NCBI GenBank assembly: GCA_963829525.1
Contig: CAWHIJ010000003.1
Coordinates: forward strand, 448,001-512,000
Direction of reading: 5' to 3'
Source: an uncultured Actinomycetota bacterium
Lineage (GTDB): Bacteria; Actinomycetota; Actinomycetes; JAHEKZ01
DNA length: 64,000 nucleotides
Below the pieces are notes generated by a model. That model worked only from the letters and a program-made list of their open reading frames with translations, did no database searches and was not told the origin of the DNA. Positions 3,885 to 51,141 of this stretch are shown one piece after another (within the stretch, counting starts at the first letter, position 1; each line of letters starts with the position of its first letter). Both the position numbers and the translations under genes were made by a program.

Positions 3885-4544
3885 TTACTTCACCAGGTCG
3901 GCGACGGTCACAACCTTGCCGAACATCATTCCACCCTCAAATGCCTTGCTCTTCAACTCACCGTTAAGCAGACTTGCGGCACCACGGGTGAGGTGAATGC
4001 CAATTCCGGCGACCCGAGCCTTCGTTGGCGCAGTTTTGTCGTTGTACGTCGGAACCAACGGCGGGTCAAAAACCTTGACTACGAAGACGGCCACAGGGTC
4101 GACTGTGTCACCGTTGATCGAGCGGGCAAAGACCTTCATGCGGTCGAAGTTCACGACGAAGTCGCCGAACTTCATTACCTTGCCGTTGTTGGTGTTGAGG
4201 ACGCGGATGGTTCCTGTGTGAGAAACTCTCCCGCCGGTAACGGCGCCAACCGTTCCTCCGATGGGGTTGTCTTCGAGCGTCAACTTGCTCGGAGTCGTCA
4301 CACTAAAGGTGAACTGCTGGCGTGCCTCGCCACCCTTGCGGATGATGACCGAAGAGGCACCGTTGGTGCCCTTCATCAGGATTCCGTCTGCGGTGAGGTT
4401 GTGCAGAACCTTCGCAGTTGTCGTGATCTCAGTTCGGCCTCCGTAGATGGGGGCAGTGCTGTCGGCCATCGCCGGTGCAGCCACAGTCCCCACGAGTAGC
4501 GTGGAGGCCCCTACGATTGCGAGTACTTTCCTGGAGAGTCTCAT
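3885..4544 (-). CDS. Secreted hypothetical protein
   Basis: Signal peptide MRLSRKVLAIVGASTLLVGTVAAPAMA; GGAG RBS; beta-rich body. Confidence 0.75.
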   Translation of the reverse strand: MRLSRKVLAIVGASTLLVGTVAAPAMADSTAPIYGGRTEITTTAKVLHNLTADGILMKGTNGASSVIIRKGGEARQQFTFSVTTPSKLTLEDNPIGGTVGAVTGGRVSHTGTIRVLNTNNGKVMKFGDFVVNFDRMKVFARSINGDTVDPVAVFVVKVFDPPLVPTYNDKTAPTKARVAGIGIHLTRGAASLLNGELKSKAFEGGMMFGKVVTVADLVK

Positions 4545-4719
4545 CTCAACTCCTTCGAAGTTGCAGATTCGTGGGCTCTGAACCCACACTCCCTGTCTAC
4601 GCCCGCACCTGCAGAGGCAACAGCCCAAAATTGGGTGGGGTCGTGACCTTGGACCCTGTCCCCGCCCTCAGCTGATCTCCTACCGTTGGGCTATCCGAGA
4701 AACTGACGGGGGCAGCCTC

Positions 4720-5472
4720 ATGTCAGAATTTCAATCGGCACGGCACAGACCACCAGCAACAGCGATCCCCGGGGAGGTCGTGGCTTATGCAGTCCGTGCC
4801 TCTCCCGACCTCATCCGGGTCGTGAACGATGAGGGGGTCGTGGTCTACGCCTCAGATGCCGCCGAGGAGATTCTCGACCGTGATCCCAAAGATCTTGTGG
4901 GACAAGGGGTAACCGGCGTCAAAGGCTCGGTTGAGGACCAGACCTTGGACTCTGCGTGCCGGAGGGCACGGGAGGGTCAAAAGACCGTACGCGTGGTCCA
5001 CCGAGCAAAGAAGGGTGACGCGGCACACCGCTGGTGTGAGACGACGATTCGCGTGCTGAGAACGGCTCGCGGCCAGTTTTCGGTTTTGGTCACTCGGCAA
5101 GCCCTGGCCCCGGTCGTTGAGCCGAAACGTGGTTTCGCTGCCAGGGGGAATGCCACGGGTGCCGAGCGCGACGTTGGGCCGAGCGCCGCGGCGGATGCGC
5201 GCCAACTCTGCCGGCACCTCACGGACCGCGAACTGCAGGTGCTCAATTGCCTGGGCGAAGGGTTGTCGGTCGGCGAGGTGGGTCAACGTCTCCACATCCG
5301 GGAGAGCACGGTGCGGGGGCACGTAAAGTGCCTGCTGCACAAGCTGCAGGTGCACTCGCAGCTTCAGGCCGTGCTCGTGGGGATGGAAGGGGGCGTCGTC
5401 CCGAACGGGTTGGCGGTCCTTGAGCGTCGCAACCAGGCGGCTGTGACAGCGTCGATGGCCAATCCACACTAG
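4720..5472 (+). CDS. PAS-domain LuxR-family regulator
   Basis: N-terminal PAS-like segment; C-terminal LTDRELQVL...TVRGHVKCLLHKL HTH. Confidence 0.8.
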   Translation: MSEFQSARHRPPATAIPGEVVAYAVRASPDLIRVVNDEGVVVYASDAAEEILDRDPKDLVGQGVTGVKGSVEDQTLDSACRRAREGQKTVRVVHRAKKGDAAHRWCETTIRVLRTARGQFSVLVTRQALAPVVEPKRGFAARGNATGAERDVGPSAAADARQLCRHLTDRELQVLNCLGEGLSVGEVGQRLHIRESTVRGHVKCLLHKLQVHSQLQAVLVGMEGGVVPNGLAVLERRNQAAVTASMANPH

Positions 5473-5523
5473 ATTCTTCGCTGCCGATCGTCGGCGACTC
5501 ACCGACCACGGCAGAGGTGACCT

Positions 5524-6252
5524 GTGGCTGCTCGACTGGAGTTCCTCGATGCACAGCAGACGCCCATGGGCGTGATCAGCCTGCGTCGCCGTCTTGACCC
5601 AGTGTCTGGTCAGATCGTCTACGAGGCCAAGCTCGACGATGAGTTCTTGATGTCCAGCCTGTTCACTGCCGCTGAGGAGGAAGTTGCTCGGTTGGCGTTG
5701 GCTGAGGTAGACGGCGACGAACTCGATGTTGTCGTTGGCGGGTTAGGCCTCGGCTACACCGCGCACACCGTGCTCACGGACCCCCGCGTTCACTCTCTCA
5801 TCGTCGTTGATGCGCTGGGCCAGGTGATCGACTGGCACCAGCGTCATCTGCTGCCGCTCGGTGATCCCCTGACTTCCGACTCGCGGTGCCGAATGGTCCA
5901 GGGTGACTTCTTCACGCTCGCTGCCGGTGACGGCTTCGACGCCGCTGAGCCCGACCGACGGTTCGACGCGGTGATCGTTGACATCGACCACTCACCCCGC
6001 GAGCTGCTGCATCCGAGCCACGCCGGCTTCTATGAGCCGACCGGCATCCGGCGACTCGCCAGGCACCTGCGCCCAGGTGGTGTATTCAGCCTCTGGTCCA
6101 ACGACCCACCGGACGCTGCATACACCGCAGAGCTCGAAGCCGTCTTCGTCGATGTGCGGGCAGAGGTGGTGCGCTTTGACGGCGCTCTGCCCGATCGCGA
6201 GGCGACGAACACCGTCTATGTCGCGCGGCGTCCGAATGATCCGAATGAGTAG
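5524..6252 (+). CDS. Spermidine synthase-like SAM-dependent methyltransferase
   Basis: VVVGGLGLGYT SAM-binding motif, FDAVIVDIDHSP, LRPGGVFSLWS. Confidence 0.85.
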   Translation: MAARLEFLDAQQTPMGVISLRRRLDPVSGQIVYEAKLDDEFLMSSLFTAAEEEVARLALAEVDGDELDVVVGGLGLGYTAHTVLTDPRVHSLIVVDALGQVIDWHQRHLLPLGDPLTSDSRCRMVQGDFFTLAAGDGFDAAEPDRRFDAVIVDIDHSPRELLHPSHAGFYEPTGIRRLARHLRPGGVFSLWSNDPPDAAYTAELEAVFVDVRAEVVRFDGALPDREATNTVYVARRPNDPNE

Positions 6253-7610: not shown

Positions 7611-8885
7611 ATGGAACTGACACCACCTTCCGCTGTCCGCACAGTGGCCCTGCTCGGGGCGGGCGCTCTCGTGGCCACCTTGGCCGTTGTTGTTGCCCCT
7701 GCTGACGACGCAGATGCGGGGCGCCCTTGTCGCATCAGCACCAGCACCACCCTTGACTCGAAGACCCGCCTTGCTGGCGGCGCTGTCATGCGGCGCTTCA
7801 CGGCGAGTGCTCAAGGTGCGGCAAAGGGAGGGGATGACCAAAAAGCTAAAGCCATCCTGACTTCGTGGCCTACCGGCGCCTATCCGTCGCTCATCAACCC
7901 CAAGATCGGTGAGCGCATGATCACTGGTGCCATGGTGAAGAAGCAGCAGTCGCTGGCCCTAGGCGCTATCAACGGGGACTTCTTTCGCTCGACCAGTATT
8001 CGGTACGCCTCCGGGATCGAGATGTCGCGTGGGCCGATGGTGCGAGGTGGAGAGGTGATCCGTGGATCCAAGGACAAGCAGGTCGTCGTCGGTGTGGACA
8101 CCGCCGGACAACCATACGGAGCGACGTTGGGCGTTCGCGGCAGCGTTCAGCCTCGGCTCGCTACTGCCAGCCCCGTTCCCGTCGTGTCGGTCAACTGGAA
8201 CAAGCTCGTCGGTGGGGGTGTGAACGTCTACACGACCGACTGGAGCGATGCCGTGCGGACGGATGGCAGGCAGGCCACGCCACGACCGGCTGGCGCTGTC
8301 GAGTGGGTGCTGAACTCGCGTGACAAGATCAAAACGATTCGCTCGGCAACGAACAACACGAGGCAGCTCGGTGCGCCCGTGGCAGAGGGTACCCAGGTGC
8401 TCGCCTTCGCGGATAAAGTTGGGTCCCCCCAGGTTCCTACGGGCACGAGGGTCAAGGTCGATGTCAAGCAGGCCGCTGGCGGTGCGCAGCTCTTTACCGC
8501 CATCGGTCGCGGTTTCACCCTGGTTGAAGGTGGTGTCGCAGGCCCGCGCGGGTGCCGGTCCTACGACGTATCTACCGATGGCCGGCCACGCACGGTCATC
8601 GGCTGGGACAAAGACGGTCAGTGGCGCACCGTCACGATCCCCGGCACTCGCTTCGAGAGCGACGGCCTCCGGCAAGGTGGCTTCGGACTGGCCAACGTAG
8701 CCAACGTCGCCAAGAAGCTGGGCCTGGCCAATGCCTACGAACTCGACGGTGGAGGATCAACAACACTGTGGACGCGAAGCACCAGCGGAATCTGGTCACG
8801 TCGCGATCTTTTCGGAGTCGACACGAGAGTGTGTTCCTGCGAGCGACCGGTGACCAACGGTCTGGCCTTCCTGGCCGGCCCCTGA
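7611..8885 (+). CDS. Secreted phosphodiester glycosidase (NAGPA-like) family protein
   Basis: Signal peptide; AINGDFF, PRTVIG, ELDGGGSTT and RPVTNGL motifs. Confidence 0.8.
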   Translation: MELTPPSAVRTVALLGAGALVATLAVVVAPADDADAGRPCRISTSTTLDSKTRLAGGAVMRRFTASAQGAAKGGDDQKAKAILTSWPTGAYPSLINPKIGERMITGAMVKKQQSLALGAINGDFFRSTSIRYASGIEMSRGPMVRGGEVIRGSKDKQVVVGVDTAGQPYGATLGVRGSVQPRLATASPVPVVSVNWNKLVGGGVNVYTTDWSDAVRTDGRQATPRPAGAVEWVLNSRDKIKTIRSATNNTRQLGAPVAEGTQVLAFADKVGSPQVPTGTRVKVDVKQAAGGAQLFTAIGRGFTLVEGGVAGPRGCRSYDVSTDGRPRTVIGWDKDGQWRTVTIPGTRFESDGLRQGGFGLANVANVAKKLGLANAYELDGGGSTTLWTRSTSGIWSRRDLFGVDTRVCSCERPVTNGLAFLAGP

Positions 8886-37786: not shown

Positions 37787-38461
37787 GTGATCGCTGCTCC
37801 CCGCTTGCTCAGCGTGAATCTCGCCGTGGTTCGCGACAACCCTTTCAAAGAGGCGGCCCGAACCGGCATCGACAAGCAGGCGACGGACGGGCCCGTGACA
37901 GTCAGGGCGCCAGGGAGCAAGGCTCATGGCCTTGGCAGTGGGCTCGTCGGTGACTTCATTGGCGACCGTCGTAACCATGGTGGCGACGACCAGGCGGTTT
38001 ACGCATACGCGGTGGAGGATCTGCGGTGGTGGACTGACCAGCTAGGTACGACGCTCGGGGCTGGACAGTTCGGTGAGAACCTCACGACGGAAGCTCTTGC
38101 TGTCAATGACGCTCGCATCGGAGAACGCTGGAGACTGGGCGAGAACGTCGAGCTGCAGGTCTCGGAGCCGCGTATCCCGTGTGGCACGTTTCGCGGATGG
38201 ATGAATCGGCCGGGCTGGCTCAAGACCTTCACCGCCGCCGCTCGGCCCGGTGCCTATCTTCGGGTGTTGACTCCCGGGGTGGTGCAAAGCGGTGACCTGG
38301 TTGAGATCACGCACGTCCCCGCACACGACGTCACGGTGGCTATGGTCTTTCGAGCTCTGACGACTGAGCCGTCCTTGTTGCCAAGAATTCTAGAGTCGCC
38401 GGACCTAGCAGACGAGACGCGTGAGATGGCCGAATCGGGCCGAACCTTCCACCTTGGATGA
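37787..38461 (+). CDS. MOSC-domain protein
   Basis: TGIDK, HGG.DQAVYAY, FGENLT, PRIPC and G.YLRVL..G motifs. Confidence 0.88.
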   Translation: MIAAPRLLSVNLAVVRDNPFKEAARTGIDKQATDGPVTVRAPGSKAHGLGSGLVGDFIGDRRNHGGDDQAVYAYAVEDLRWWTDQLGTTLGAGQFGENLTTEALAVNDARIGERWRLGENVELQVSEPRIPCGTFRGWMNRPGWLKTFTAAARPGAYLRVLTPGVVQSGDLVEITHVPAHDVTVAMVFRALTTEPSLLPRILESPDLADETREMAESGRTFHLG

Positions 38462-38484
38462 GCTCTGGGTGCACTCGGCCGGAT

Positions 38485-38516
38485 TGAGGGTGGAGCCAGA
38501 TCCGGCCCCACCCTCA
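38485..38516. terminator. Hairpin just outside the left att; likely the original tRNA-Pro terminator
   Basis: TGAGGGTGG...CCACCCTCA stem, 6 bp from the duplicated tRNA 3' end. Confidence 0.65.
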
Positions 38517-38522
38517 TCACAC

Positions 38523-38547
38523 GGCGTCGGGGTGGCGGGATTCGAAC
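38523..38547. repeat. att site (distal), copy of the tRNA-Pro 3' end
   Basis: GGCGTCGGGGTGGCGGGATTCGAAC is identical to 50130-50154. Confidence 0.93.
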
Positions 38548-38791
38548 TCCGAAAAGCGTGTTCGGCGGGGGTCGCCAGCGTTCTGGGATATTGCATCGTC
38601 GCAGGTGAGCGACGTGTGGAGTTCGCGCGGCCTCGGAGCGGTTCACCGAAATCCGATGCTCCCGTGACCACTTCTGTGACCACTCGAGGCCGCGAATCTG
38701 CTGGTTGACGTCGGCTGTGAGGCGCCGCCCTGGCTGCCCTGTGGGTCCGGGATTGAGCAAGTCTCAGATCGAAGGCGAGACGCATTACGAG

Positions 38792-39102
38792 GCCGCTGCG
38801 GAGGTTCCACCGAGGTTCATGCTCGGCCGTCGCCGACAGAGGTCAGTGGCATACGGAACAGTCGCGGATTTGCCCGACACGACATCAACTGAGACCACAA
38901 CTGAGACCACGATTTCAAGCGTGGAACTCCATTAGATCTCCAAGCTAACCCACTCGCTTACCTCGCCATACCACCGAGACGTGATGCACCTGATGAACCT
39001 GCTTTCCGACTGCCAACCCGTCGCAGCACAGCTCCTCATGACGCATCTCACGCACGACAATGCGCCTCGGGGGTTGATTGATAAGGCTGTGAAACGTCCG
39101 CG
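38792..39102 (+). repeat. ~310-bp internal direct repeat, copy 1 (att-like module)
   Basis: Colinear with 42911-43219; identical blocks GCCGCTGCGGAGGTTCCACCGAGGTTC, (AACTGAGACCAC)x2 and CTCCAAGCTAACCCACTCGCTTACCTCGCCA. Confidence 0.9.
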
Positions 39103-39465
39103 GTCCTGACGTTCCGTCCGATGTTCGTGGGCGCAAGTCGCCGGGCGCTGAAGGTGACGCGTCCAGATCCCCCATACCGAGACTCGGGATATGGGAGTGT
39201 CCCCGAACCCGGACAGATCTGGGGGGGGAGTATCGACCGAGGGGGGCAGCGCTTGCTACATCTTCGCCGACTGCCTCGCTGCTGCGAATGAGCCGGAGGG
39301 GAGCACGAACCAGCGTTGAGGCTGCCGATTGAAGCGCGGCCCCCCGGGGGGTAATGCGCCGTCCGTCTAAGAGCCCGGCAGTGCAACCGCGGGGCGCCCC
39401 GGCGGCGGTCGGCGCGTGCGTGAGGAGTCGGTTGCCACGCGATATTTCGAGTGGTTCAACGCGGT

Positions 39466-39732
39466 CTACGACTGGGAGAGCGCGGGCCCGATGACGGTCA
39501 TGATCTCGCGATCGTATGTAGTGCTGAGGGCTACGTAACCTACACCCTCTACGGAGACGGTCATCCCCTTGTGCGCGGAGGTCACGCCGTCCACCCACGC
39601 GCGTTGTGCCTCGGGCGAGGAAAAGGTCCGCAGCATGACTGGCGCGCTGTGTTCCGGGGTGCCAAAGTCGGTGACGTTGTCTACAAACCAGACCGAAGCC
39701 CAGTGTTCGGAGTACGCGTCAAGCACTGCCAT
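39466..39732 (-). CDS. Small hypothetical protein (element cargo)
   Basis: 88-aa ORF with protein-like composition and GAGG upstream; no recognised motif. Confidence 0.4.
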   Translation of the reverse strand: MAVLDAYSEHWASVWFVDNVTDFGTPEHSAPVMLRTFSSPEAQRAWVDGVTSAHKGMTVSVEGVGYVALSTTYDREIMTVIGPALSQS

Positions 39733-40019
39733 TAGGCCTCGACCTGCGGGCCCTGCCAGAGAGCAGGGAGTCTTTCATGGCTCTGCGAGGCGATCCACCA
39801 GGACGGACCGATGGCCCACTGCGACCACGATCTACCGCTGTCCGAAGGCTGCATCTCCTGCCAGATAGCGGGGGAACCGGTCATTGACGACAACTAGCCA
39901 TCGAGAACAGCCTTGTGCACTGTCTGAGTACGGCTCTTGTCGACACCACCCATATCCTTGACAGCGGCTTCACCCACTGATTTAGTGGCCTGCCCGTTTT
40001 GATCCGAGACTGGGGTTCC

Positions 40020-41324
40020 GTGAAACTGAGCCAAAAACTGGCGATGCCATGCCTGGCGGTGGGAGCAGTCGCCGCAGTTGCCGTATTCGGAACGACCGCA
40101 CCCGCGGCGGTGGCCGATGATTCCTCCACGCAAGCGGTCGACGCCGGTTCCGTCGAGGTCATCGAACCTGACCCAGTTGACCTTGTTCCTGAGGACCTGG
40201 CGGGGACCGCCGGGCACGCGGCCTGGCTTGTTGAGACGTACCCGCAAGACTTCGGTGGCAGTTGGTATGACGAGGCAAGGGGTTTGGTGGTCGTTCAGGT
40301 GGTTTCGTCCCAGGGACGTGAAATAGCCACGGAAATGCTTCCCATGGGTTCGATTGATATTACGGAAGTGCAGTTCTCGGCGAAGGACCTTGAAGACCAG
40401 ATCCAAGCGATTGCGACAGACCCAAACCTTGCGCCGATCGTCAACGTCGCGAGTGCCGACTACGAAAACAACAGCGTCCGCGTGGACATGGAATCTATGT
40501 CTGCGTCAAGCGCAGAAGACCTTGATGCAAGCGGGGACATCGACATCGAAGTCGACATCACTGATGCACTGAACGTTGTTAAGACCGACACTCGCGATGA
40601 CGATTCCGGCCCCGGCCATGCTGGTGGCATGCGCTATTACGCGCGAAAGCCCGACACGCAGGATTGGGGAAGCTGCACCGCGGGCTGGAGCTGGCAATGG
40701 GCGGGCGGCGATTACATGTTGACCGCTGGACACTGCTTTCCGCAGCACACTGATCGGACCCAGGCATGGACGAAACTGGGAGGCGATTGGGACGAGCGTT
40801 TTGGCGGCTGGCCCGGATACACGTCGGTCAATGACAGTGGGTATGACTCGATCAAGTTCTCAGACGACGAGTACCACGGTGACGTGAGCCTCATCAGTAT
40901 GACGGGCAGCAACAACGCCAACGCCAATATGTGGACCGGAGGTGTGGCCTCATCGGACAAACTTGACGTTACCCAATGGAGTGCGCCATTCGTGGGGCAG
41001 GGCCTGTGCGTATCTGGCGCGTATACGGGCAAGACATGTGGTTTTGTGGTGTCGCGGACCAACACACACATTCACCTCGACGCGGCGCCGTCAAGATGGG
41101 ATTCGTGGGAGTCGGTTGACGTCGCACTTCACGGCAACGATTGCCTCGCGCATGGTGACTCGGGTGGATCGGTCTATGACCCGATCGCTGGGACCAACAA
41201 TGTTCGTGCCGTGGGAGTGGTTAACTCGGCGACGACTAGTGGCTCCTGCGGCGATGCCGCCCTAGTCTTCACAGGTACAGAGGAGGCCGGACAGGCCTTT
41301 GGGGGTGCGGTGAAAACCCAATGA
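40020..41324 (+). CDS. Secreted S1 (alpha-lytic/streptogrisin-like) serine protease with acidic pro-region
   Basis: Signal peptide; CTAGW...LTAGHC, GDVSLI, CVSGAYTG and GDSGGSV motifs. Confidence 0.85.
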   Translation: MKLSQKLAMPCLAVGAVAAVAVFGTTAPAAVADDSSTQAVDAGSVEVIEPDPVDLVPEDLAGTAGHAAWLVETYPQDFGGSWYDEARGLVVVQVVSSQGREIATEMLPMGSIDITEVQFSAKDLEDQIQAIATDPNLAPIVNVASADYENNSVRVDMESMSASSAEDLDASGDIDIEVDITDALNVVKTDTRDDDSGPGHAGGMRYYARKPDTQDWGSCTAGWSWQWAGGDYMLTAGHCFPQHTDRTQAWTKLGGDWDERFGGWPGYTSVNDSGYDSIKFSDDEYHGDVSLISMTGSNNANANMWTGGVASSDKLDVTQWSAPFVGQGLCVSGAYTGKTCGFVVSRTNTHIHLDAAPSRWDSWESVDVALHGNDCLAHGDSGGSVYDPIAGTNNVRAVGVVNSATTSGSCGDAALVFTGTEEAGQAFGGAVKTQ

Positions 41325-41677
41325 CGCCGACGGAGTGGCAGACCAGCGAGGCACGTCGATCCGAAGGGGATCGGGTTACACGCCTTCATCTCGTTGGCCT
41401 GCTCATCCTTGTCGTCGGGTTAGGTCTGGCATGGTGGAAGTTCGATTCGCCGTCGTGCACTCACGGGGTCACCCTTGCGCGACTGGCCGCGGGAGCGCTC
41501 ATAGTGGTCGCCATCGCGGGACTCGGTTTCGTCTTGGCGGGAGCGCGAAGGCTTGAGTCGGGCAGAGTATGGATCGTGCTTGCAGGCGTGCTGCTAGCGG
41601 CACCGACGTTGTTTGTCGGCTTGTATGACCTACGGGAAGCATTCCGGTTGGCCGCGTGTATGACCCAACTTCTGTGA
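41321..41677 (+). CDS. Small three-TM membrane protein
   Basis: ATGA overlap with the protease stop; three hydrophobic segments. Confidence 0.6.
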   Translation: MTPTEWQTSEARRSEGDRVTRLHLVGLLILVVGLGLAWWKFDSPSCTHGVTLARLAAGALIVVAIAGLGFVLAGARRLESGRVWIVLAGVLLAAPTLFVGLYDLREAFRLAACMTQLL

Positions 41678-41841
41678 ACGTGCTCGGCGCTTCGCGTCCG
41701 AGCGGCCGCTTTGGCCAAGTATGTGCTTCAGAGGAGTCGGCTGGCGCGCTGTCGTCCGATCGCCGTGCGGTTTCATGCGGCGAGCCGTGAGGTCGGCTAG
41801 TCCGCGCACGTGACGCGCGCGTTGGTTGGCGCATCGTTCCG

Positions 41842-43008
41842 GCACGCGGCTATTGCGCTATGCACTACACACGATGGCGTCTTCACGGTGATCCCCTAGT
41901 CGTACTTAGGGCCAACAAGCAACCGGACGGTGCGGTGTGCCAAGTCGATAGTTGCGACCGGCCTGCGCAATCGCGCGGTTACTGCGGCATGCACTACGCA
42001 AGATGGCGCAAACATGGCGACCCCCTGCTCGGTGGAAGAGCTAGGCGATCAGATGCCACGGCTTGTTACGTAGAGGGCTGCAACCGGCCACAGAAGAGCC
42101 AGGGCTACTCCGGCATGCACTACAAGCGATGGCTAAAGCACGGCGACCCGCTCGTGGAGAGGACTCGCTACATCGCAGCCTCCGTGTGCAGTGTCAATGG
42201 CTGCGACAGACTCCCAAAGTCGCGCGGCTACTGCGACAAGCACTATCGGCGGTGGCTTAAGTATGGAGATCCGCTGGACGGCAAGTCTTCGCATCGCACC
42301 TACACCAAGGATGCGGTATGCAGCGTCGATGGTTGCGACGCGTCCCCGAGCTCACTGGGCTTCTGCCGTCTGCACTACGAACGGTTCCGCAAGCACGGCG
42401 ATCCACTGGTCGTACTTAGCGGCGGACGGCGCCACAAACCTGGCGAAACTTGTGAAATCGAGGACTGCGACAAGCCCATCAGAAGTCGGGGCTACTGCCT
42501 CATGCACTACACCCGGTGGCGCCAACATGGTGACCCACTGGTGGTTCTCAAGGTGGCGAAGCGACCTGAAGGGTCCGTGTGTGCCGTCGAAGGATGTGCT
42601 GACGCTGTGGCCGCCGGAGACTTCTGCAATCGGCACTACTTGCGTTGGAGGAAGCACGGTGACCCTTTGGGCGGCAAACCTGGTCCGAGCGTTCTAAGGG
42701 CCTTGGATCACGAGGACGGGACCCGAACGTGCAGCGTCTGCGAGGAACGGAAGCCCCTGGATGCGTTCCCGAAGGACAGGGCCGGCTCGCGGAGTCGAAG
42801 GGCGTACTGCAAGGCTTGTCACGTCAAGAAGATGACGGTTCGGTACAACGAAGATCCCGAACGGTTTCGCGCCGCCGCGCAGAAGCGGCTAGAAGTCAAT
42901 GGCGAGGAACGCCGCTGCGGAGGTTCCACCGAGGTTCGTGCTCGACGGTTTGCGCAGGTCAATCGCATACGGGACAGTCGCGGAACTGCCCGACACGACA
43001 TGAACTGA
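41842..43008 (+). pseudogene. Tandem zinc-finger-repeat protein (phage HNH/EndoVII-associated type), truncated at both ends
   Basis: One partial and six full C-x4-C-x9-C-x2-HY-x-R[WF]-x2-[HY]GDPL repeats (one has C to S), then CSVC...YCKAC. The frame runs into repeat copy 2 at 42911 with no nuclease domain. Confidence 0.75.
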
Positions 43009-43219
43009 GACCACAACTGAGACCACGATCTGATCCGTCGAACTCGATTGGACCCTCCAAGCTAACCCACTCGCTTACCTCGCCACACCAGCGAGACGTG
43101 ATGCACCTGATGAACCCGCTTTCCGACTGCCAATCCGTCGCTGCACAGCTCCTCTTGACGCATCTCACGTGCAACGATGCGCGCCAGGGGTTAGTTGATA
43201 GTGCGAAGAAACGTCCGCG
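42911..43219 (+). repeat. ~310-bp internal direct repeat, copy 2 (att-like module)
   Basis: Colinear with 38792-39102, with sharp boundaries at GCCGCTGCGG and GAAACGTCCGCG. Confidence 0.9.
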
Positions 43220-43254
43220 ATGCCCGAGTGGCCGTCAGGCACAGCAGGGGGCGT

Positions 43255-43770
43255 TCAGCCCCCATCGTCAGTCCACAATGTCGCCTGGTTGGCGGCAGCG
43301 ATGGCCTCGGTCAGATCCAAGGCGCAACTGTAGACGTGGTCCAAGTCTTCTCCTTCAACCGTAGCGAGGGCTGTGCCCGCTGGTGGAAGCGGCTGAAGCC
43401 ACAACTGCCACCGGATTCCGTCGGGACCTCCGTCCGATGCGAAGCAGCCCAGTGTGTAGTCGCTACTGCCGTCACGGATGGGTGAACCGTGGCTTGTACC
43501 CCACTTCGCGCTGGATCCGTCCGGCCAACTGAGCGATAGAGACAACCAATCAGGGTGGCTTGGTTCGAACCGAAGGTCCCATTCATGGCTGGGCGACCGC
43601 GCGGCCACAAGCAGGGTGAGATCCAGACGTAATCCGTCCGGGTATGCCGCTGGGCACGTGAGGGTCACAACAGCATTGTTGGCATGGGCAATTACTGCGC
43701 CGAATCCGGGGAAGCCGGGAATCCAGCCTCGGAAATCCGGCGGCCAGCCTTGCTGTTGCCCCTCGGCCAA
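43255..43770 (-). CDS. Hypothetical protein of an actinobacterial-looking family
   Basis: GGAGG RBS before TTG; WPP...W.PG, YPDG, W.DG, LWLQPLPPAG and AA..A.LW pattern. Confidence 0.65.
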   Translation of the reverse strand: MAEGQQQGWPPDFRGWIPGFPGFGAVIAHANNAVVTLTCPAAYPDGLRLDLTLLVAARSPSHEWDLRFEPSHPDWLSLSLSWPDGSSAKWGTSHGSPIRDGSSDYTLGCFASDGGPDGIRWQLWLQPLPPAGTALATVEGEDLDHVYSCALDLTEAIAAANQATLWTDDGG

Positions 43771-43813
43771 TTTTGACCTCCGTGACCCATTCCAATGAAC
43801 CGGGACAAGCAAC

Positions 43814-43993
43814 CTATGGTTGCGTATTGGGGCAAGCCCAGCCACCGTTGCGCTCACTCGGCGGCAGCTGGCACTGGTTGCTAGGCATAGCGGGTTCGTG
43901 CGCCGTGGCGGCGCGACTAGAGGCAAGACCAACGGTCAGAACTACGAAGGTCATGGCGATGAGCGCCTGGCTACGCCGGGATCTCAGGGTCAT
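43814..43993 (-). CDS. 59-aa secreted peptide or truncated paralog of the upstream secreted protein
   Basis: GGGAG RBS, signal peptide, QCQLPPSERNGGWACP matching QCSVPVDSRTGAWTCP in 44059..44871. Confidence 0.55.
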   Translation of the reverse strand: MTLRSRRSQALIAMTFVVLTVGLASSRAATAHEPAMPSNQCQLPPSERNGGWACPNTQP

Positions 43994-44058
43994 CTTCACA
44001 TACTCCCGACTCGTCACTAGCGCGACTCCCTTGGTCCCAGGCGCTTCCGTGCACTGCG

Positions 44059-44871
44059 TCACTTCCAACCGCTCCCCGCGGGGTCTTGCGGCACGCATGA
44101 ATCGCACTGCGAGTTGTACGCCCCACTCGACTGCCTTGCCAGTTTGATCGACTTCGCCCACATGTACCAAGTTCCAGGGTACTGGGATGAGTAGTCTTGC
44201 CACTGCGCCTCGTTAGCCACTGTGACGTAGGCAACCCCGTTGGTCCATGACTTACCGGGCGATGGCCATTGAGTCGACACTCCGCCTGCTGCTGATCCCC
44301 AGGACTTCTGGGCATACAAGATCGGGTCTTGGTGATTCCCTTCGGGACGAGCGGAAGACACATAGAGGTCTTCGGTGCTAATGATGATGTTGGTCGTTCC
44401 TCTGCTTGCCGAGAACCACAGCGGATAGGCCTTGATGTTGCTCCCCTTTGCCACGATCTTGAAGTGAAGCCGTCCAGTTCCAAGCATTGTGCCGCCGTAC
44501 CCGTACGTCACACTGCCGTCAAAGGTGTTGGTGGCGCTGTCAATCTTGGTCCAGCAACCATCGATCGTGCACCACCCGGTGCCAGCCGCAGCCACGTCAG
44601 CTGCCGATACCAGCTTCTTGCCGAGCGCTGCCCGCGCTGCCCGCGCAGCCCGCGCAGCCGACGTCGGTGTTGTATCTGGACACGTCCACGCCCCTGTGCG
44701 GGAATCGACCGGGACGGAACACTGGTCCGTCGAGGGATCGCTCGTTGTTGTGGCTGTGTACCCGACGGCGATCGTGGTCCGTGAGCTTGAGACTGCGCCG
44801 GACGCGGCCTGAGGCGCTATCGCCAGCATCAGGAGCACTGCACCGAGGAACGACCAGACTCTGATTGTCAT
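44059..44871 (-). CDS. Secreted Cys/Trp-containing hypothetical protein
   Basis: Signal peptide MTIRVWSFLGAVLLMLAIAPQAASG; three Cys pairs; AARAARAARAA linker. Confidence 0.7.
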   Translation of the reverse strand: MTIRVWSFLGAVLLMLAIAPQAASGAVSSSRTTIAVGYTATTTSDPSTDQCSVPVDSRTGAWTCPDTTPTSAARAARAARAALGKKLVSAADVAAAGTGWCTIDGCWTKIDSATNTFDGSVTYGYGGTMLGTGRLHFKIVAKGSNIKAYPLWFSASRGTTNIIISTEDLYVSSARPEGNHQDPILYAQKSWGSAAGGVSTQWPSPGKSWTNGVAYVTVANEAQWQDYSSQYPGTWYMWAKSIKLARQSSGAYNSQCDSCVPQDPAGSGWK

Positions 44872-44952
44872 GAGCAACGCCCCGATCGTCTCTGCAACTG
44901 CACGCCCTGTATACAGGTCTCGTATCCCGCGCACAAGAGGTCACGTTGACTC

Positions 44953-45183
44953 TGACGGGTCCCCGTGAACTGATCCACGGTGTGTGAGAGTCATTCATTG
45001 GTGGGTGCAGAGGCCGCGTAGTGGGCTGGTGTTCGCTAGCCCAACGATGAGTGCCTGCGGTGGTGGTTGTATTCGTCCTTGCAGTCGCCGATCACGACCC
45101 TGGCGTGTGCCAGGGACCAGAACAGGTTGATGTTCAGGCATTCGTCGCGCAGTCGTCCGTTGAACGATTCGATGTAGCCGAAG
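44953..45183 (-). mobile_element. IS3-family remnant (transposase C-terminus plus right end)
   Basis: GYIESFNGRLRDECLN...YNHHRRHSSLG integrase-core tail, a premature TAG, and an IS3-like terminus ...GGGGACCCGTCA. Confidence 0.8.
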
Positions 45184-45552
45184 CGGCTACGTTCACGTCC
45201 CTTCGAGCGGTGTAACTGGGGCGCTGAACCTGGTCGGCTTTGCGGTGATGCTGGTTGGACTGTCGCCCGTCGAGGGACGAGGGCGTGATCGCCCACGGCT
45301 CTCACCCGTGAACTTCGACAAGCAGACCGCTGCACTCGTCTTGCACCGTGCCTGTGACCGTTGGCCCGGCTGGCGGTAAGTGTTGCTGGAACCGTTGGCA
45401 ACTTGGATTCCGTGTTCGCGTCGGGTCGCAGTGGTGCATCCGGATCTTGTTCGCGCCGGGACTTCGTCTTGGGGGTCGTTCTGCACACCTGTTGTTGTGA
45501 GGTCGGCGCGATGTGCGTCGGCCCGTGACGGGTCAGGGCGGTGGGCGCGGTG

Positions 45553-48510
45553 ATGTCGATGCACCGCCTGTCGGCCGGGAACGGCTTCCGGTATCTGCTG
45601 AACACCACCGCCACGTCTGACGTGGAACGTACGCCCGGGCTTCCGTTGGTGGAGTACTACGCGGAATCGGGGAACCCACATGGACGCTGGGTCGGCGGCG
45701 GACTATCCGGTCTAGGTGAGGGTCAGGGCATCCCGGTCGGCACTGAGGTGTCCGAGGCAGCGATGACCGCAGTGTTCGGCCACGCGGCCGACCCGGTGAC
45801 GGGGTCCGCACTTGGTCGGCCGTTTCCCACGCGGACCGGGGTCGACGGCGTAGCCCGCCCGTCCGGTGTGGCGGGCTATGACCTGACGTTCACGGTCGTG
45901 AAGTCGGTCAGTGTGTTGTGGGCTCTGGGGGACGAAAACACACGCACTGTGGTGACGGCCGCACACCACGCGGCGGTCACCCAGACCCTGGCAGCGTTGG
46001 AGGACCGGGTGGCCGCGACCCGGGTTGGACATGGCGGCGCAAGCCGCGTGGCAACCCGCGGAGTCATCGCGGCGGCTTTCGACCATCCCGACACCAGGCA
46101 CGGTGACCCAAACCTGCACACCCACGTGGTGGTCGCCAACCGCGTCCAGGCCGCCGACGGTCAATGGCGGACTCTGGACGGCCGAGTCATGTTTGCGGCT
46201 GCGGTGGCGTTATCGGAGACCTACGACGGCCTCCTCGCCGACGAGCTCGCTCGAAGGCTTGAGGTTGGTTTCGGGTCGCGCGACCGCGGTCCCAGGCGGT
46301 CCGCGGCGTTCGAGGTCGACGGCATCGACGAGGAGCTCCTCGCGCTGTTCTCCACCCGTGCCCGAGACATCGACGGCCACTTCCAAGACCTGCTGGTCGA
46401 CTTCCATGTCGACCACGGGAGGGGGCCGTCGCGGGTCGAGGCGATCCGCCTACGGCAGACCGCGACCTTGGCTACTCGTCCCATCAAACGCGCCCGCGCC
46501 TGGGCCGACCTGCTGACCGAGTGGGGCCAACGCGCACGCCTGTTCACCGGGCGCGCCCCGAAAGATCTGCTCGCGGAAGCCCTAAATGGCACCTACGCCC
46601 GGTCGCTGCGGGCGCGCGACATCGGCCCGGGCTCCCGCCAAGACCTCGCCGGATTGGCGGTCGTGGGGGTGCAAGCCAGGAGATCAACGTGGAACGGGTG
46701 GAACCTCGAAGCCGAGGTTGCGCGTCTCACCAAGCCCCTACGATTCGCGACGCCGCGCGATCGTTTGGAGGTTCACGCCAGCCTCGTCGCAACCGCCCAA
46801 GACACCTGTGTCGCCCTTCACGACGCCGACAGCGTAGTTGACCGGTGGACCGCGATGGCGCGGCGCTGGACATCGCCGGCGATCCTGGACGCCGAGTCCC
46901 GCCTGTTGAACGCCGCGACCACCGGGGTCGGGCCAGCCGTCGATGAACGGCTCGCGTCGCGGGTGGCGGCCGCGACGACCTCAGCCCAGGACCTGCCCAG
47001 GTCGCTATCTGATCGCGGTATCGGGCGACTCTCACCCGATCAGGCCGCAGCGCTCGTGGCGGTGTGCACGTCCGGGCACGGAGTGCAGGTCCTCGTCGGC
47101 CCCGCCGGATCGGGGAAGACCACCACCCTGAAAGCCATCAAGGGCCTGTGGTCGATGGACCGTCGCAACACCGCCGGGGTCATCGGGCTGGCGCCGTCCG
47201 CGGCGGCCGCCCAAGAACTCAGCACGGCCCTGGGGGTGCGGTGTGAGACCACCGCGAAGTGGCTGCACGAGACCATCGGCCCTGGCGGGCAACAACGCGC
47301 CGCGACCCTCACCGCCTTGACTGACGGCTCTCAGCCCCGAACGACATCAGGTAGTCGGGCCGATGCCCGAGGTCAGGTCGCCTGGCGGCTACGCGGCGAG
47401 CAGGCCCGGTGGCGGCTCAAGGCCGGGCAGCTGCTCATCGTCGATGAGGCCACCCTCGCCGGCACCCTGGACCTGGACCACCTCTTGAGCCAAGCCCAAG
47501 CCGCCGGCGCCGGGGTGCTGCTGGTCGGCGACCACCATCAGCTCAGCGCTGTCCAGGCAGGCGGCGCCTTCGGGCTCCTCGCCCGCCGGACCTCCCCCGC
47601 AGAGCTGACTGGGCTGTGGAGATTCGCCGACCGTTGGGAGGCCCGAGCCACCCGCCTACTGCGCCACGGACACCCCGACGCGCTGGACGCCTACGACACC
47701 CACGGCAGGCTCCACGCCGGCACCCGTCAGCAGATGATCGAAGACGCTTACCAAAGCTGGCGAGTAGACCATGACGCCGGGCGCGAGTCGCTGCTCATCG
47801 CCGCGGACAACGCCACCGTCCTGGAACTGAACACCCGGGTTCGAACCGACAACATCACCGCGGGTCGGGCCAGCGCAGCAGGGGTCGATCTCGTCGACGG
47901 AAACACCGCCGGGGTCGGCGACCGGGTCATCACCCGAGATAACAACCGCGCCCTGCCCGATGGCAAAGGCGGGCACATCCACAACGGCGACACTTGGACG
48001 ATCACCGCCCTCGGCGACGACGGCTCAGTCACCGTCACCCCCGCCCAGTCGGTCTCGGGTCAGCCGTGCCGTCCGGTGCGACTCCCCGGTGGATACGTGG
48101 CCGAGCACGTCGACCTCGGCTATGCGATCACCACTCAACGCGTCCAGTCCAGAACCGTCGACACCACCCACGTCATCGCCACGCGCGGCATGAGTCGCGA
48201 ACACCTTTACGTCGCCCTCACCCGGGGACGAGCCGACAACCACGCCTACACCCCTCTCGATACAGGCTCCGGAGTTGACATCGAAGAGCCGCACCTGCGA
48301 GCCGACGGCGCCAGCTTGAACGAAACAGGTTGCGATGTCCTCAAGCAGATCCTCGCCACCAGCAGCGCCGAACCCTCCGCCACCGAATCGCTCGAGTCCG
48401 GGCGCTATCCACAAACCGCTCCCCGGCCCAGGCTCCGTCCACAGAATCAGCCGAACACCTTGCCGCTACCCACCTCCCCGGGTCCAGATGGACCCGGGCT
48501 CACCCGCTAA
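45553..48510 (+). CDS. MOBF (TrwC/TraI-like) relaxase-helicase
   Basis: N-terminal Y...YY (FRYL, EYYAE), GYDLTF..KSVS.LWA, HPDTR.GDPNLHTH HUH motif; RecD-like GPAGSGKTT, VDEA, GD..QL, YVALTRGR. Confidence 0.92.
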   Translation: MSMHRLSAGNGFRYLLNTTATSDVERTPGLPLVEYYAESGNPHGRWVGGGLSGLGEGQGIPVGTEVSEAAMTAVFGHAADPVTGSALGRPFPTRTGVDGVARPSGVAGYDLTFTVVKSVSVLWALGDENTRTVVTAAHHAAVTQTLAALEDRVAATRVGHGGASRVATRGVIAAAFDHPDTRHGDPNLHTHVVVANRVQAADGQWRTLDGRVMFAAAVALSETYDGLLADELARRLEVGFGSRDRGPRRSAAFEVDGIDEELLALFSTRARDIDGHFQDLLVDFHVDHGRGPSRVEAIRLRQTATLATRPIKRARAWADLLTEWGQRARLFTGRAPKDLLAEALNGTYARSLRARDIGPGSRQDLAGLAVVGVQARRSTWNGWNLEAEVARLTKPLRFATPRDRLEVHASLVATAQDTCVALHDADSVVDRWTAMARRWTSPAILDAESRLLNAATTGVGPAVDERLASRVAAATTSAQDLPRSLSDRGIGRLSPDQAAALVAVCTSGHGVQVLVGPAGSGKTTTLKAIKGLWSMDRRNTAGVIGLAPSAAAAQELSTALGVRCETTAKWLHETIGPGGQQRAATLTALTDGSQPRTTSGSRADARGQVAWRLRGEQARWRLKAGQLLIVDEATLAGTLDLDHLLSQAQAAGAGVLLVGDHHQLSAVQAGGAFGLLARRTSPAELTGLWRFADRWEARATRLLRHGHPDALDAYDTHGRLHAGTRQQMIEDAYQSWRVDHDAGRESLLIAADNATVLELNTRVRTDNITAGRASAAGVDLVDGNTAGVGDRVITRDNNRALPDGKGGHIHNGDTWTITALGDDGSVTVTPAQSVSGQPCRPVRLPGGYVAEHVDLGYAITTQRVQSRTVDTTHVIATRGMSREHLYVALTRGRADNHAYTPLDTGSGVDIEEPHLRADGASLNETGCDVLKQILATSSAEPSATESLESGRYPQTAPRPRLRPQNQPNTLPLPTSPGPDGPGLTR

Positions 48511-48535
48511 CCAACGCAACGAGAAGAGAGCCGAC

Positions 48536-48754
48536 ATGCCACGGTCCGCCGCCACCGCTGACAGCACCTGCGTCCTGCTCACCGTCGAGCAGGCCGCCCA
48601 CCGCCTCGGGATCGGACGCACCATGGCGTTCGCGCTGATCGCACAAGGGCGGCTGACGACCGTCCGGATCGGCCGCCTGCGCCGCATCCCCGTCGAGGCC
48701 CTTCCGGAGTTCGTGGAATCACTGAGTCATGGTGAGCCGTGCGACCCTAAGTGA
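48536..48754 (+). CDS. xis: Excisionase-like HTH protein
   Basis: LLTVEQAAHRLGIGRT...LI..G.L..VRIGRLRRIP pattern; directly upstream of the integrase. Confidence 0.85.
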   Translation: MPRSAATADSTCVLLTVEQAAHRLGIGRTMAFALIAQGRLTTVRIGRLRRIPVEALPEFVESLSHGEPCDPK

Positions 48755-48781
48755 CGTACGGCCGTTCAGAATGGATTGCAG

Positions 48782-49987
48782 ATGAGCCCTCCCGAATCAC
48801 AGCAACAGGGCGCGACGGGTCGCCGTGGAAGCGTGAAACAGAGCGCGAACGGCACGTGGTTCTTCGTGGTCGATACCACGCCCGAGGGCGCGCCGACTCG
48901 AGAGCAGACTCGCCGACGCGGCTTCGCAACGAGACGGGCTGCTCAAGCTGCCTTGACCAAAACCCTTCGAGACTTGAGCGACCAAACCTACGTCCTGCCC
49001 CTGAGGCAAACCTTCGGTGAATACCTGACCGCAACCTGGCTCCCGGCGATTCGCTCCACCGTTCGTCCCAGCACGTACGACAGCTACGCGCGCAACATTC
49101 GCATCCACGTGACGCCGAAGAGTCTCGCGACTGTTTCCGTGCAGCAGGTGCAGGCTCCCATGCTCAACGCCTTGTACGCAGATCTGCTCGAAGGCCAGCA
49201 CCGACGGCCGCTGTCGCCACGATCAGTGTCGTACGTGCACACGATCCTGCACCGAGCCCTGCGCGACGCCGTCCGATGGAATCTGTTGGCACGAAACCCC
49301 AGCGACTTCGCCGACCCTCCCCGGGCTCGGCCATCGGAGCAGGTCCGCGAACGAACCTGGACCAGCATCGAGGTCGCGCGATTCCTCAAGGCCACGTCCG
49401 CCAGCCGGCACTCCACACTCTGGCGCTTGTACGCCACCACCGGGTTGCGGCGCGGGGAAGCACTCGGGCTGCGATGGGACGACATCGATCTCAGCGGCGG
49501 ACGGCTGTCGGTCAACCGAACGCTCGTTCAGAGCCACGACTACGCCCGCGGGGACACCGGTCTGAACTGGGGTACACCCAAGACAGCCCGCGGCCGACGG
49601 ACGGTCGCACTAGATCCCGACACCGTCTCCGCACTGCGAGCGCACCGCGCTCGCCAGCTCGAGGAACGACTGCGGGCGGGCTCCGGCTACGACGACCAGG
49701 GCTTGGTGTTTTGCAGCCGCGCAGGGGAACCGCTCCACCCGAAAGTGATCTCCAACTTGTTCCGCAAAGCCGTGCAACGCCACGACATGCCTTACCTCTC
49801 GGTGCACGGCCTACGGCACACGTGGGCGACTCTCGCGCTTCAGGCAGGCGTGCACCCGAAGATCGTCCAGGAGCGACTCGGCCACTCGACGATCTCGATC
49901 ACCCTCGACATCTACAGCCATGTGAACCCGGCGATGGACGCCGAAGCCGCCAACACCGTCGCGGCACTCATCCGTCGCGATTCATGA
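48782..49987 (+). CDS. int: Tyrosine recombinase / integrase with N-terminal arm-binding domain
   Basis: RRRGF.T...A arm domain; catalytic R (TGLRRGE), K (PKT), HGLRH, LGHS and Y (DIYSH) all intact. Confidence 0.95.
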   Translation: MSPPESQQQGATGRRGSVKQSANGTWFFVVDTTPEGAPTREQTRRRGFATRRAAQAALTKTLRDLSDQTYVLPLRQTFGEYLTATWLPAIRSTVRPSTYDSYARNIRIHVTPKSLATVSVQQVQAPMLNALYADLLEGQHRRPLSPRSVSYVHTILHRALRDAVRWNLLARNPSDFADPPRARPSEQVRERTWTSIEVARFLKATSASRHSTLWRLYATTGLRRGEALGLRWDDIDLSGGRLSVNRTLVQSHDYARGDTGLNWGTPKTARGRRTVALDPDTVSALRAHRARQLEERLRAGSGYDDQGLVFCSRAGEPLHPKVISNLFRKAVQRHDMPYLSVHGLRHTWATLALQAGVHPKIVQERLGHSTISITLDIYSHVNPAMDAEAANTVAALIRRDS

Positions 49988-50086
49988 CACGTCCCGCACA
50001 GAGCGGGCGCGGTCACGGTCGTTTTCGGAGGGTCGCTCAGTTCCTGTGACCAATCCTGTGACCAAAGGGCCGATTTCGGCCCTAAA

Positions 50087-50131
50087 CCAGTCAGCCGGTG
50101 CCTCTGACCTGCGGAGACACCGGCTGACTGG
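50087..50131. terminator. Element-borne hairpin directly downstream of tRNA-Pro
   Basis: CCAGTCAGCCGGTG / CACCGGCTGACTGG, 14-bp perfect inverted repeat. Confidence 0.65.
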
Positions 50132-50133
50132 CG

Positions 50134-50207
<74 letters not shown>

Positions 50208-50256
50208 CCAAAGCCTGGTCAGCCTACCGAACCGTGGGCAACCGCCCGAAATCGCC

Positions 50257-51141
50257 TCAATCGGCTGGCACGAGGGTGAGCAGTGTTGCCTCAGGTGGGC
50301 AGGCGAACCGGATCGGTGCTGTCGGTGATGTGCCGAGACCGGCTGAGACGTGTAGCCAGGCGTCACCTCGCACGTGCAGCCCACTGGCTTGAGAAGTCGG
50401 CAGGTCGCAGTTGGTGACGAGCGCCCCGAAGCCAGGGAGGCGAAGTTGGCCACCGTGGGTGTGACCGGCAAAGATCAAGTCGAAGCCGTCGCCAGCCATG
50501 GAGTCTACGACGCGCAAATAGGGCGCGTGGGTGACGCCAATGCGCAGGACGCCATGCTCGGGTGCGCGGTAGGTGACATCCGCGTAGCGGTCCAGGCCAA
50601 GGTGAGGATCGTCGGTACCCGCGGCAGCGATCCTCTGTTGCCGCACCTTGAGGTCGGCATCGTGGTTGTTGAGATCAATCCATCCTCGCGAAACAAACCC
50701 ATCGCGAAGGGCCTTCCACGGCAACGGCTCTCCGAGGATCCGGCCGCCCGAATCTGGCAATAGGTATCGCGCGGGGTTCTTCCACACCGGCCCGTAGTAG
50801 TCGTTCGACCCCATGACGAAGACACCGGGGATGTCGAGCAGGGGATCAAGGGTCTTGAGCACAACCGGGACGGCGTCAGGATGTGCCAGGTTGTCACCCG
50901 TGTTGACGATGAGGTCGGGCTCGAGAGCCGCAAGTTGACGCACCCACGCCGCCTTTCCCTTCTGACGAGGGATCAGGTGCAGATCGGACAGGTGCAGAAT
51001 CCGTAGTGGTTCGGCTCCTTCGTCCAGCGTCGGAACTGTGATTCGGCGCAGACGGTATTGGTGGGCCTCCCACGCGGCATAGGCGATGCCGGCCGTCTGG
51101 GCTGCGACAGCGGCTGCGAGAAGTCTTCGGCCTCGGGACAC
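50257..51141 (-). CDS. Metallophosphoesterase
   Basis: SDLH, TGDN, GSND.Y, THAP, GHTHGGQ and VSAGLG motifs. Confidence 0.9.

Follow-up and report, generated by a model that had tools for sequence, protein, structure and literature searches.

The stretch of DNA analysed here, referred to below as the window, comprises 64,000 nucleotides (nt) of contig CAWHIJ010000003.1 from an uncultured Actinomycetota bacterium (GenBank assembly GCA_963829525.1, positions 448,001 to 512,000). It carries an 11.6-kb island at the 3′ end of a tRNA-Pro(CGG) gene, bounded by an identical 25-mer at each end (Table 1), and this island hosts two direct repeats, R1 and R2, which are the subject of this study. The island is best read as an integrative mobilizable element (IME): it has an integrase gene and attachment (att) direct repeats at both ends, one of them inside the target gene, as well as a relaxase of the MobF type. 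Several of its open reading frames (ORFs) match no family at all, and among the 10 element ORFs scanned there is no match to a mating-pore (type IV secretion system) or coupling-protein family. Family scans of the ORFs also return no replication gene in the element.

R1 and R2 lie on the plus strand and are present in two copies only in the window. A repeat search recovers them as three colinear pieces (38792-38830/42911-42949, 38840-38936/42956-43052 and 38938-39102/43055-43219) at a spacing of 4116-4119 nt, and blastn within the window aligns them at 85.6% over 312 columns (E = 5.7e-100), in agreement with the initial annotation, which had described two colinear repeats of ~310 bp with identical blocks of 25-31 bp. 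When the left-end region is searched by blastn against all 64 kb, no third copy appears. In a global alignment, 266 of 308 aligned positions are identical, with 4 further gap columns, and the divergence is even along the repeat (86.9% identity in the left part, 86.0% in the right). The longest identical runs measure 31, 27, 27 and 25 nt. We dropped the idea that these blocks are a chance outcome of 86% identity: a single longest run of at least 31 nt is unremarkable (P = 0.24 by simulation), and four runs of at least 24 nt are blockier than a random placing of the 46 differences (P = 0.0012, 5000 simulations). Both copies contain the same perfect 24-nt tandem, (AACTGAGACCAC)x2. The left end of R is sharp, as had been proposed for both ends; the right end is common to R1 and R2 only, and the copy in the closest relative diverges 30-40 nt earlier.

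Relatives of the element were obtained by scanning genome contigs with the relaxase, which gave 58 pattern matches and four confirmed loci (L001 to L004). Left ends are visible in L001 (JBBQAL010000073.1) and L002 (JBBQAL010000080.1) only; L003 and L004 end too early. L001 represents an element of this kind in another species, inserted at the corresponding chromosomal site: its relaxase is 90% identical to that of the window and its chromosomal flank 76%, and its attL core shows no difference. It has a single R (582-917), followed by ~8.8 kb of unrelated cargo and then by a conserved block that begins 208 nt upstream of the relaxase gene. L002 is integrated in tRNA-Thr(CGT), and its relaxase and excisionase are 63% and 66% identical to those of the window, its integrase only 33%. 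L001 and L002 belong to one metagenome-assembled genome (MAG), and the tRNA-Pro and tRNA-Thr integrase types may coexist in one cell, although MAG binning can mix strains.

The tRNA-Thr element L002 provides the key to R. Its attL and attR share an identity block that starts beyond the tRNA 3′ end and extends to the anticodon loop. Its last letters are ...ACGCATTACGAG, with GCCG next in attL. The arm begins where this block ends, and 94 nt into it stands the pair AACTGAGACCAAAACTGAGACCAC, that is, AACTGAGACCA(A/C) twice; on the integrase side a second pair, AACTGAGACCAA x2, lies just before the int stop codon. All four TG[AT]GACCA 8-mers of L002 form these two pairs, which flank its att site. 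In the window, the 13 nt immediately left of R1 match the L002 attL/attR block at 12 of 13 positions, up to its last base, and R1 and the L001 copy both read (G)ACGC(A/G)TTACGAG followed directly by GCCGC at the aligned place, L001 with one mismatch. A weaker tRNA-like trace, TCGAA, is found at 38770-38774. Furthermore, an nhmmer profile of R1, R2 and the L001 copy matches L002 at 190-325 (model positions 12-151, E = 6.1e-13) and again at 7863-7903, beside the int stop (E = 0.0017), and the remaining 6 profile matches outside R all have E of at least 4.5. The CTGAGACCAC motif starts 97 nt from the core edge in R1 and 94 nt from it in R2, L001 and L002. Because a core edge precedes R1, the arm is homologous to that of L002 and the motif pair is equally spaced, R is probably the integrase-distal arm of an attP of the tRNA-Thr type, derived from a sister lineage, and it begins exactly at the end of that site's core. 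R1 is thereby kept as a relic or auxiliary arm within a tRNA-Pro element. About 160 nt of R is confined to the window/L001 lineage.

The att ends of the resident element contain motif pairs of their own. These differ from the R tandem motif by one base (TGAGACCAC versus TGTGACCAC when the two forms are set side by side), and the distal pair is identical in L001. The perfect tandem in both copies, the pairs of 12-bp period at the element ends and the single-base difference between them are all present as first reported, and the suggestion that the repeats are att-derived and the CTGAGACCAC pairs arm-type-like is borne out by the same pairs flanking the tRNA-Thr att of L002 at an equal distance from the core edge. 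The TG[AT]GACCA 8-mer occurs eight times in the 64 kb, seven of them at att-related places (the R tandems and the element arm pairs), all on the plus strand; the eighth is inside the relaxase gene. That single site, GTGTGAGACCACC, is kept in the relaxase coding sequence of three elements (window 47244, L001 11593, L004 2836) and probably reflects coding constraint, not an arm site.

Table 1. Features of the tRNA-Pro(CGG) island and its borders, in window coordinates
Feature	Coordinates	Strand	Remarks
attL core	38523..38547		displaced 3′ end of tRNA-Pro; 25-mer 100% identical to 50130-50154
Integrase-distal arm pair, resident att	38662..38683	+	CCGTGACCAC tt CTGTGACCAC, 114 nt from core
tRNA-Thr-type att core-edge remnant (probable)	38779..38791	+	GACGCATTACGAG, anticodon stem-loop side; also in L001
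R1	38792..39102	+	probable relic integrase-distal arm of a tRNA-Thr-type attP plus ~190 nt of lineage-specific non-coding sequence; nhmmer
(AACTGAGACCAC)x2 in R1	38887..38910	+	
Cargo block 1	39103..42910		protease candidate, small membrane protein, truncated HNH endonuclease gene
Secreted S1-like serine protease candidate	39999-41324	+	call based on the motifs TAGHC and GDSGG
Small membrane protein	41321-41677	+	
Truncated multi-repeat HNH endonuclease gene	41791/41860-~42910	+	seven 43-residue Cys/His repeats, HNH domain missing
R2	42911..43219	+	same arm module, without core remnant, fused directly to broken HNH gene
(AACTGAGACCAC)x2 in R2	43003..43026	+	
Cargo block 2	43220..45035		two minus-strand ORFs, 43255-43932 and 44059-44934; no family match
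Transposase C-terminal fragment	45036..45218	-	rve_3 integrase-core domain, E = 3.4e-17, residues 133-192 of ORF only
Conserved non-coding stretch upstream of relaxase gene	45333..45540	+	189/208 identical to L001 (91%); conventional location of an origin of transfer (oriT)
MobF (TrwC-type) relaxase-helicase	45541..48510	+	TrwC E = 1.9e-79, AAA_30; MobF 237 bits, cut-off 100
Excisionase-type helix-turn-helix protein	48536..48754	+	HTH_17; TIGR01764 48 bits, cut-off 28.8; start 48536 inferred
Tyrosine integrase	48776..49987	+	Phage_integrase E = 6.8e-26; N-terminal arm-binding-like domain
Integrase-proximal arm pair	50044..50065	+	CTGTGACCAA x2, 64 nt from core
attR core	50130..50154		25-mer repeat
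tRNA-Pro(CGG), integration target	50133..50207	-	

R2 differs from R1 in what precedes it. The 41860-43008 ORF runs rightward into R2, and five of its homologues (E ≤0.001 among 157 candidates, with the C-terminal part as query) continue instead for ~130-150 residues through an HNH domain that is missing in the window, so that the second copy indeed starts at a cut gene, as the initial annotation had noticed. The missing HNH half is found neither in the window nor in the relative loci (nothing better than E = 0.03), and the HNH side of the junction is unlike the core, with 3 of 12 positions matching by eye. Since R2 is preceded by HNH coding sequence without a core, and R1 by a 13-nt stump only, the two copies share no core or overlap and cannot serve as a pair of sites for a tyrosine recombinase; being direct repeats with 86% identity, they permit only homologous (RecA-type) loss or circle formation of the 4.1-kb block. 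The core that had been proposed within the repeats, a 5-bp inverted repeat around a 7-nt spacer (CCGAG-N7-CTCGG), occurs at chance level, with 129 perfect cases in the window or 0.62 per 310 nt; it is imperfect in R2 and not conserved in L002, and the real core edge lies just left of R1.

Comparison with L001 indicates how R has been evolving. From the attL core to the core stump, window and L001 are 93% identical, in R 75-78% with 66 gap columns, and the fall sits at the boundary between stump and R. At third codon positions, the relaxase and int genes of the two elements agree in 82-85%, and most of R therefore appears to drift at about a neutral rate. The three-copy alignment of R has 204 invariant columns out of 355, and the 24-nt tandem coincides exactly with their longest unbroken run (shuffling gives P = 0.0002, or 0.013 on the 289 ungapped columns only). 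L002 keeps 23 of the 24 tandem positions. A 20-nt block, AACCCACTCGCTTACCTCGC, is also invariant in R1, R2 and the L001 copy (window 38948-38967 and 43065-43084; L001 736-755) and is not present in L002, and a 14-nt block is likewise invariant in all three copies. Because no other invariant stretch of the three copies is as long, the tandem probably continues to bind a protein, and the arm-binding domain of the resident integrase, the conserved excisionase and a co-resident tRNA-Thr-type integrase are candidate binders.

How a tRNA-Thr-type arm may have come to lie in a tRNA-Pro element is suggested by the pattern of similarity between window and L002, which is good across relaxase and excisionase, breaks down at int and reappears from the former core edge onward. 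Once the element is excised as a circle, int, the proximal arm, the tRNA-Pro core and the distal arm as far as ~38791 lie together as a single uninterrupted module. The simplest reading would be a replacement of the int-attP module, in which the common ancestor of the window element and L001 exchanged a tRNA-Thr-specific module for a tRNA-Pro-specific one, while the old arm (R1) and the terminal 13 nt of its core stayed behind. Integration-module exchange with a change of target is documented within integrative and conjugative element (ICE) families, in the account given by PMC4701971. A second, related segment of R plus cargo would have joined later, by accretion or by recombination between two related elements, and the internal junction and one mobility module would then have been lost, leaving R2 joined to an HNH gene that lacks its catalytic half. 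R1 and R2 differ from each other evenly, by 14%, and less than either does from the L001 copy, which argues for two related source elements and not for a fresh duplication. Accretion of IMEs with decay, the same kind of history, is described in PMC5704250 for the elements treated there, and the structure may derive by deletion from such a composite of an IME and a cis-mobilizable element (CIME), although an internal att between att-bounded units, as found in accretion composites, is lacking here. Taken as a whole, the route of module swap and accretion is the explanation that we favour, with moderate confidence.

Several observations weigh against this account. There is no further copy of the tRNA-Pro core in the window, and neither core type occurs between R1 and R2. 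Searches of the window for remnants of a second relaxase, excisionase or integrase give nothing better than E = 0.16. With no second mobility module and no internal core, accretion needs a deletion that is itself unobserved. Moreover, the R2 junction falls on the core-arm edge to within ~6 nt of possible microhomology, where a random deletion endpoint would rarely lie; an integrase cut may have started the event, and the model leaves this position unexplained. The 13 nt to the left of R2 match the sequence left of the R1 core remnant at 9 of 13 positions in a gapped alignment, for which the chance is roughly estimated at ~0.08, so that the exact breakpoint is uncertain. The near-neutral divergence of R from L001 fits decay and would equally fit an R that travels with the cargo and not with the backbone. 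Finally, the statements about the family rest on four related loci, of which L001 and L002 are the informative ones.

A competing route dispenses with a second whole element. A circle consisting of R, cargo 1 and the broken HNH gene, produced elsewhere by aberrant excision, might have entered the resident R by homologous (Campbell-type) recombination, or R might have been duplicated in place with cargo 1 inserted later. The absence of any trace of a second mobility module is as this history predicts, the unit 38792-42910 is exactly one repeat period, and even divergence between R1 and R2 is expected when a diverged copy is inserted by homology; as a means of joining, insertion of such a circle is equally workable as accretion. 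It still needs an earlier fusion of the broken HNH gene to the edge of R, however, and with 14% divergence the donor must have been a different, related element anyway, so that it departs from the favoured account only in the manner of joining, whereas duplication in place followed by insertion needs two independent events. That there were never two whole elements is, in our judgement, rather unlikely. A further reading, to which we give a lower probability still, takes R to be a portable, working arm module whose tandem, kept invariant while the remainder of R drifts, would serve in trans as a binding site for the integrase or excisionase encoded by tRNA-Thr-type elements in the same host, such as L002 beside L001 in their common assembly, with a second recombinase cutting at the core-R edge and adding or removing units of R plus cargo. 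If true, mobilizable islands would accrete units in a cassette-like manner, or one island would respond to two integrases, and the position of the R2 junction on the core-arm edge would be the scar of such an event.

The initial annotation had gone further and proposed that R1 and R2 are working secondary recombination modules with which the resident or a related integrase captures or excises 38792-42910, as in a cassette or integron-like system. The att origin of R stands, all three copies have kept the arm-type pair, and the core-arm edge, where a tyrosine integrase would cut, coincides with the left border of R2; moreover, the L001 copy of R likewise sits at the border of variable cargo, and with L001 and L002 in the same assembly, cross-talk between the tRNA-Pro and tRNA-Thr types is physically possible. 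What is lacking is a crossover site common to the two copies, and the proposed core is at chance level; a second integrase is lacking as well, since tblastn with the L002 integrase matches only 48830-49972 in the window. The presumed cassette is a multi-gene block that ends in a broken gene; the cargo genes of the island lie on both strands; the close relative has a single R; and the resident integrase scores far under the cut-offs of the integron-integrase models (TIGR02249, 48.8 bits against 265; PRK15417, 33.5 against 435). No structured attC-like element was detected, and integron attC sites were rejected as an identity for R, which has no hairpin support and bounds a block of three or more ORFs. 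Such a function is, in our judgement, improbable. Tandem accretion, which the same proposal mentioned, belongs to the right family of ideas, and what finds no support is a present function as a cassette system.

Even less probable is that R is another kind of duplicated cis-acting site, such as a MobF oriT, a block of replication iterons, or a region with promoter or regulatory function. The element must have an oriT and no sequence was recognized as one, the 12-bp tandem resembles iterons, and the invariant 20-nt and 14-nt blocks are unexplained. The same tandem, however, stands on both sides of the L002 att, including directly after int, which is arm-site geometry; the stretch at 45333-45540, conserved as it is with L001, occupies the usual place of an oriT, though without an inverted repeat; and the element has no replication gene. 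Inverted repeats of at least 8 nt within 40 nt are absent from R (two short palindromes lie left of it) and from 45200-45600, and nothing oriT-like was seen in either place. A promoter scan of 38500-43400 returned 0 promoter-like sites of the sigma-70 kind, and the 4 terminator-like sites in the same interval, against 2.8 expected, are all outside R. Rfam models report only tRNA on 38000-51000 at E up to 1, and the covariation term that RNAalifold computes from the three copies, +1.57, lends no support to a conserved RNA fold. Other identities were rejected as well. R is not a gene, as no frame is open across it in both copies, and the one short frame that the right halves of R1 and R2 have in common is interrupted in L001, by a stop codon as well as by two insertions (25 and 18 nt). 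Nor, in the sequences searched, does it behave as the end of an insertion sequence (IS) or a miniature inverted-repeat transposable element: there are two copies in the window and one in L001, without terminal inverted repeats. Blastn in distant mode with 38548-39110 as the query finds no match in plasmid and phage collections.

The resident att site is organized like a lambda-type attP. Arms of this kind belong to the attP of heterobivalent tyrosine integrases, as in lambda, mycobacteriophage L5 and the tRNA-Pro element pSAM2. Like these, the window has a core held in common with the 3′ part of a tRNA gene, paired motifs on both sides at 60-115 nt from the core, an integrase with a putative N-terminal arm-binding-like domain and an adjoining excisionase gene; a repeated motif distinct from the core is found on both core sides in the window pairs and also in L002 (273-296 and 7863-7886). 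The Arm-DNA-bind_4 model scores 21.5 bits on the window integrase, just below its cut-off of 22.3 (E = 1.8e-4), and is unreported for the L002 integrase. Unlike a standard lambda-type attP, the window possesses an additional arm with a different specificity, located 245 nt inside the resident one and preceded by a 13-nt core stump, and a second copy of that arm entirely without a core. An inverted repeat of 25 nt at 50080-50138, with 84% complementarity and a 9-nt loop, has its end within the att core, immediately after the 3′ end of tRNA-Pro. It may act as a terminator of the tRNA gene or of int, or else belong to the attP architecture.

Two further observations concern the att sites of the relatives. 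ARAGORN calls a tRNA-Pro(TGG) of 85 nt at L002 135-219, at the attL junction, where the displaced tRNA-Thr 3′ half and the element arm form a chimera, and the call is likely false. L004, whose relaxase and integrase are 64% and 34% identical to those of the window, has another tandem after int, CGCGAATCCGCGACTCA twice with a 22-nt period (5600-5660), and further downstream a DUF4143 ATPase gene and tRNA-Lys. The L004 tandem differs along with its integrase, which suggests that arm motifs change with the integrase in this family.

The cargo of the island is not shared with L001, L002 or L004 in tblastn and tblastx comparisons. In cargo block 1, the protease-like ORF reaches only 21 bits with an Rv1815-family model, below the cut-off, and its one match in a PDB sequence search (E = 0.0077) is too weak for a name. 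The truncated HNH gene encodes seven tandem copies of a 43-residue unit (C-x2-C ... GYC-x2-HY-x-RW-x2-HGDPL), the first of them lacking its front part, cut by the frame start, followed by a Zn-ribbon-like segment. Homologues have 1-3 such units and an HNH nuclease domain (PF01844, PF14279), and seven units represent an expansion. Between cargo block 2 and the conserved stretch upstream of the relaxase gene sits a 60-residue transposase stump, which we take to belong to the IS3 family and which marks a further rearrangement in the variable region. The L001 cargo likewise contains a transposase, of the Mutator family (IS256-like), at 4491-5513 on the minus strand (Pfam E = 8.6e-120).

Set beside known systems, the island resembles the composites of CIMEs with ICEs or IMEs in streptococci, in which, as PMC5704250 presents them, related elements are stacked at one tRNA gene, the mobility genes of one partner have decayed and internal att-derived sequence lies between cargo blocks. 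The canonical composites in that presentation keep an internal att with a core, and their sub-elements can excise, whereas in the window a broken gene is fused to an arm. The contrast of a relaxase and excisionase at 63-66% identity with an integrase at 33%, and of tRNA-Pro with tRNA-Thr as the target, recalls module exchange among the ICEs covered by PMC4701971; unlike in the cases considered there, the presumed swap breakpoint is readable to the base, with the old core edge and arm remaining. To integrons the likeness is limited to the loose idea of repeats bounding cargo near a tyrosine recombinase: the integrase is not IntI, there is no hairpin attC, and the cargo is multi-genic, on both strands and ends in a pseudogene. 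This is not a new cassette system but ordinary island biology with an unusually legible fossil.

The current understanding of how such elements work is unchanged by these findings. Incongruent gene trees are the usual basis for inferring changes of integration specificity by module exchange and the accretion of islands at tRNA genes, and in the window the breakpoint of a putative tRNA-Thr to tRNA-Pro integrase/attP swap can be read at single-base resolution. For annotators, the locus is a warning against taking every att-like repeat within an island for an active site. The old arm-type sites nevertheless still look selected, and the island would therefore offer a simple test of whether arm sites can be reused between integrase lineages.

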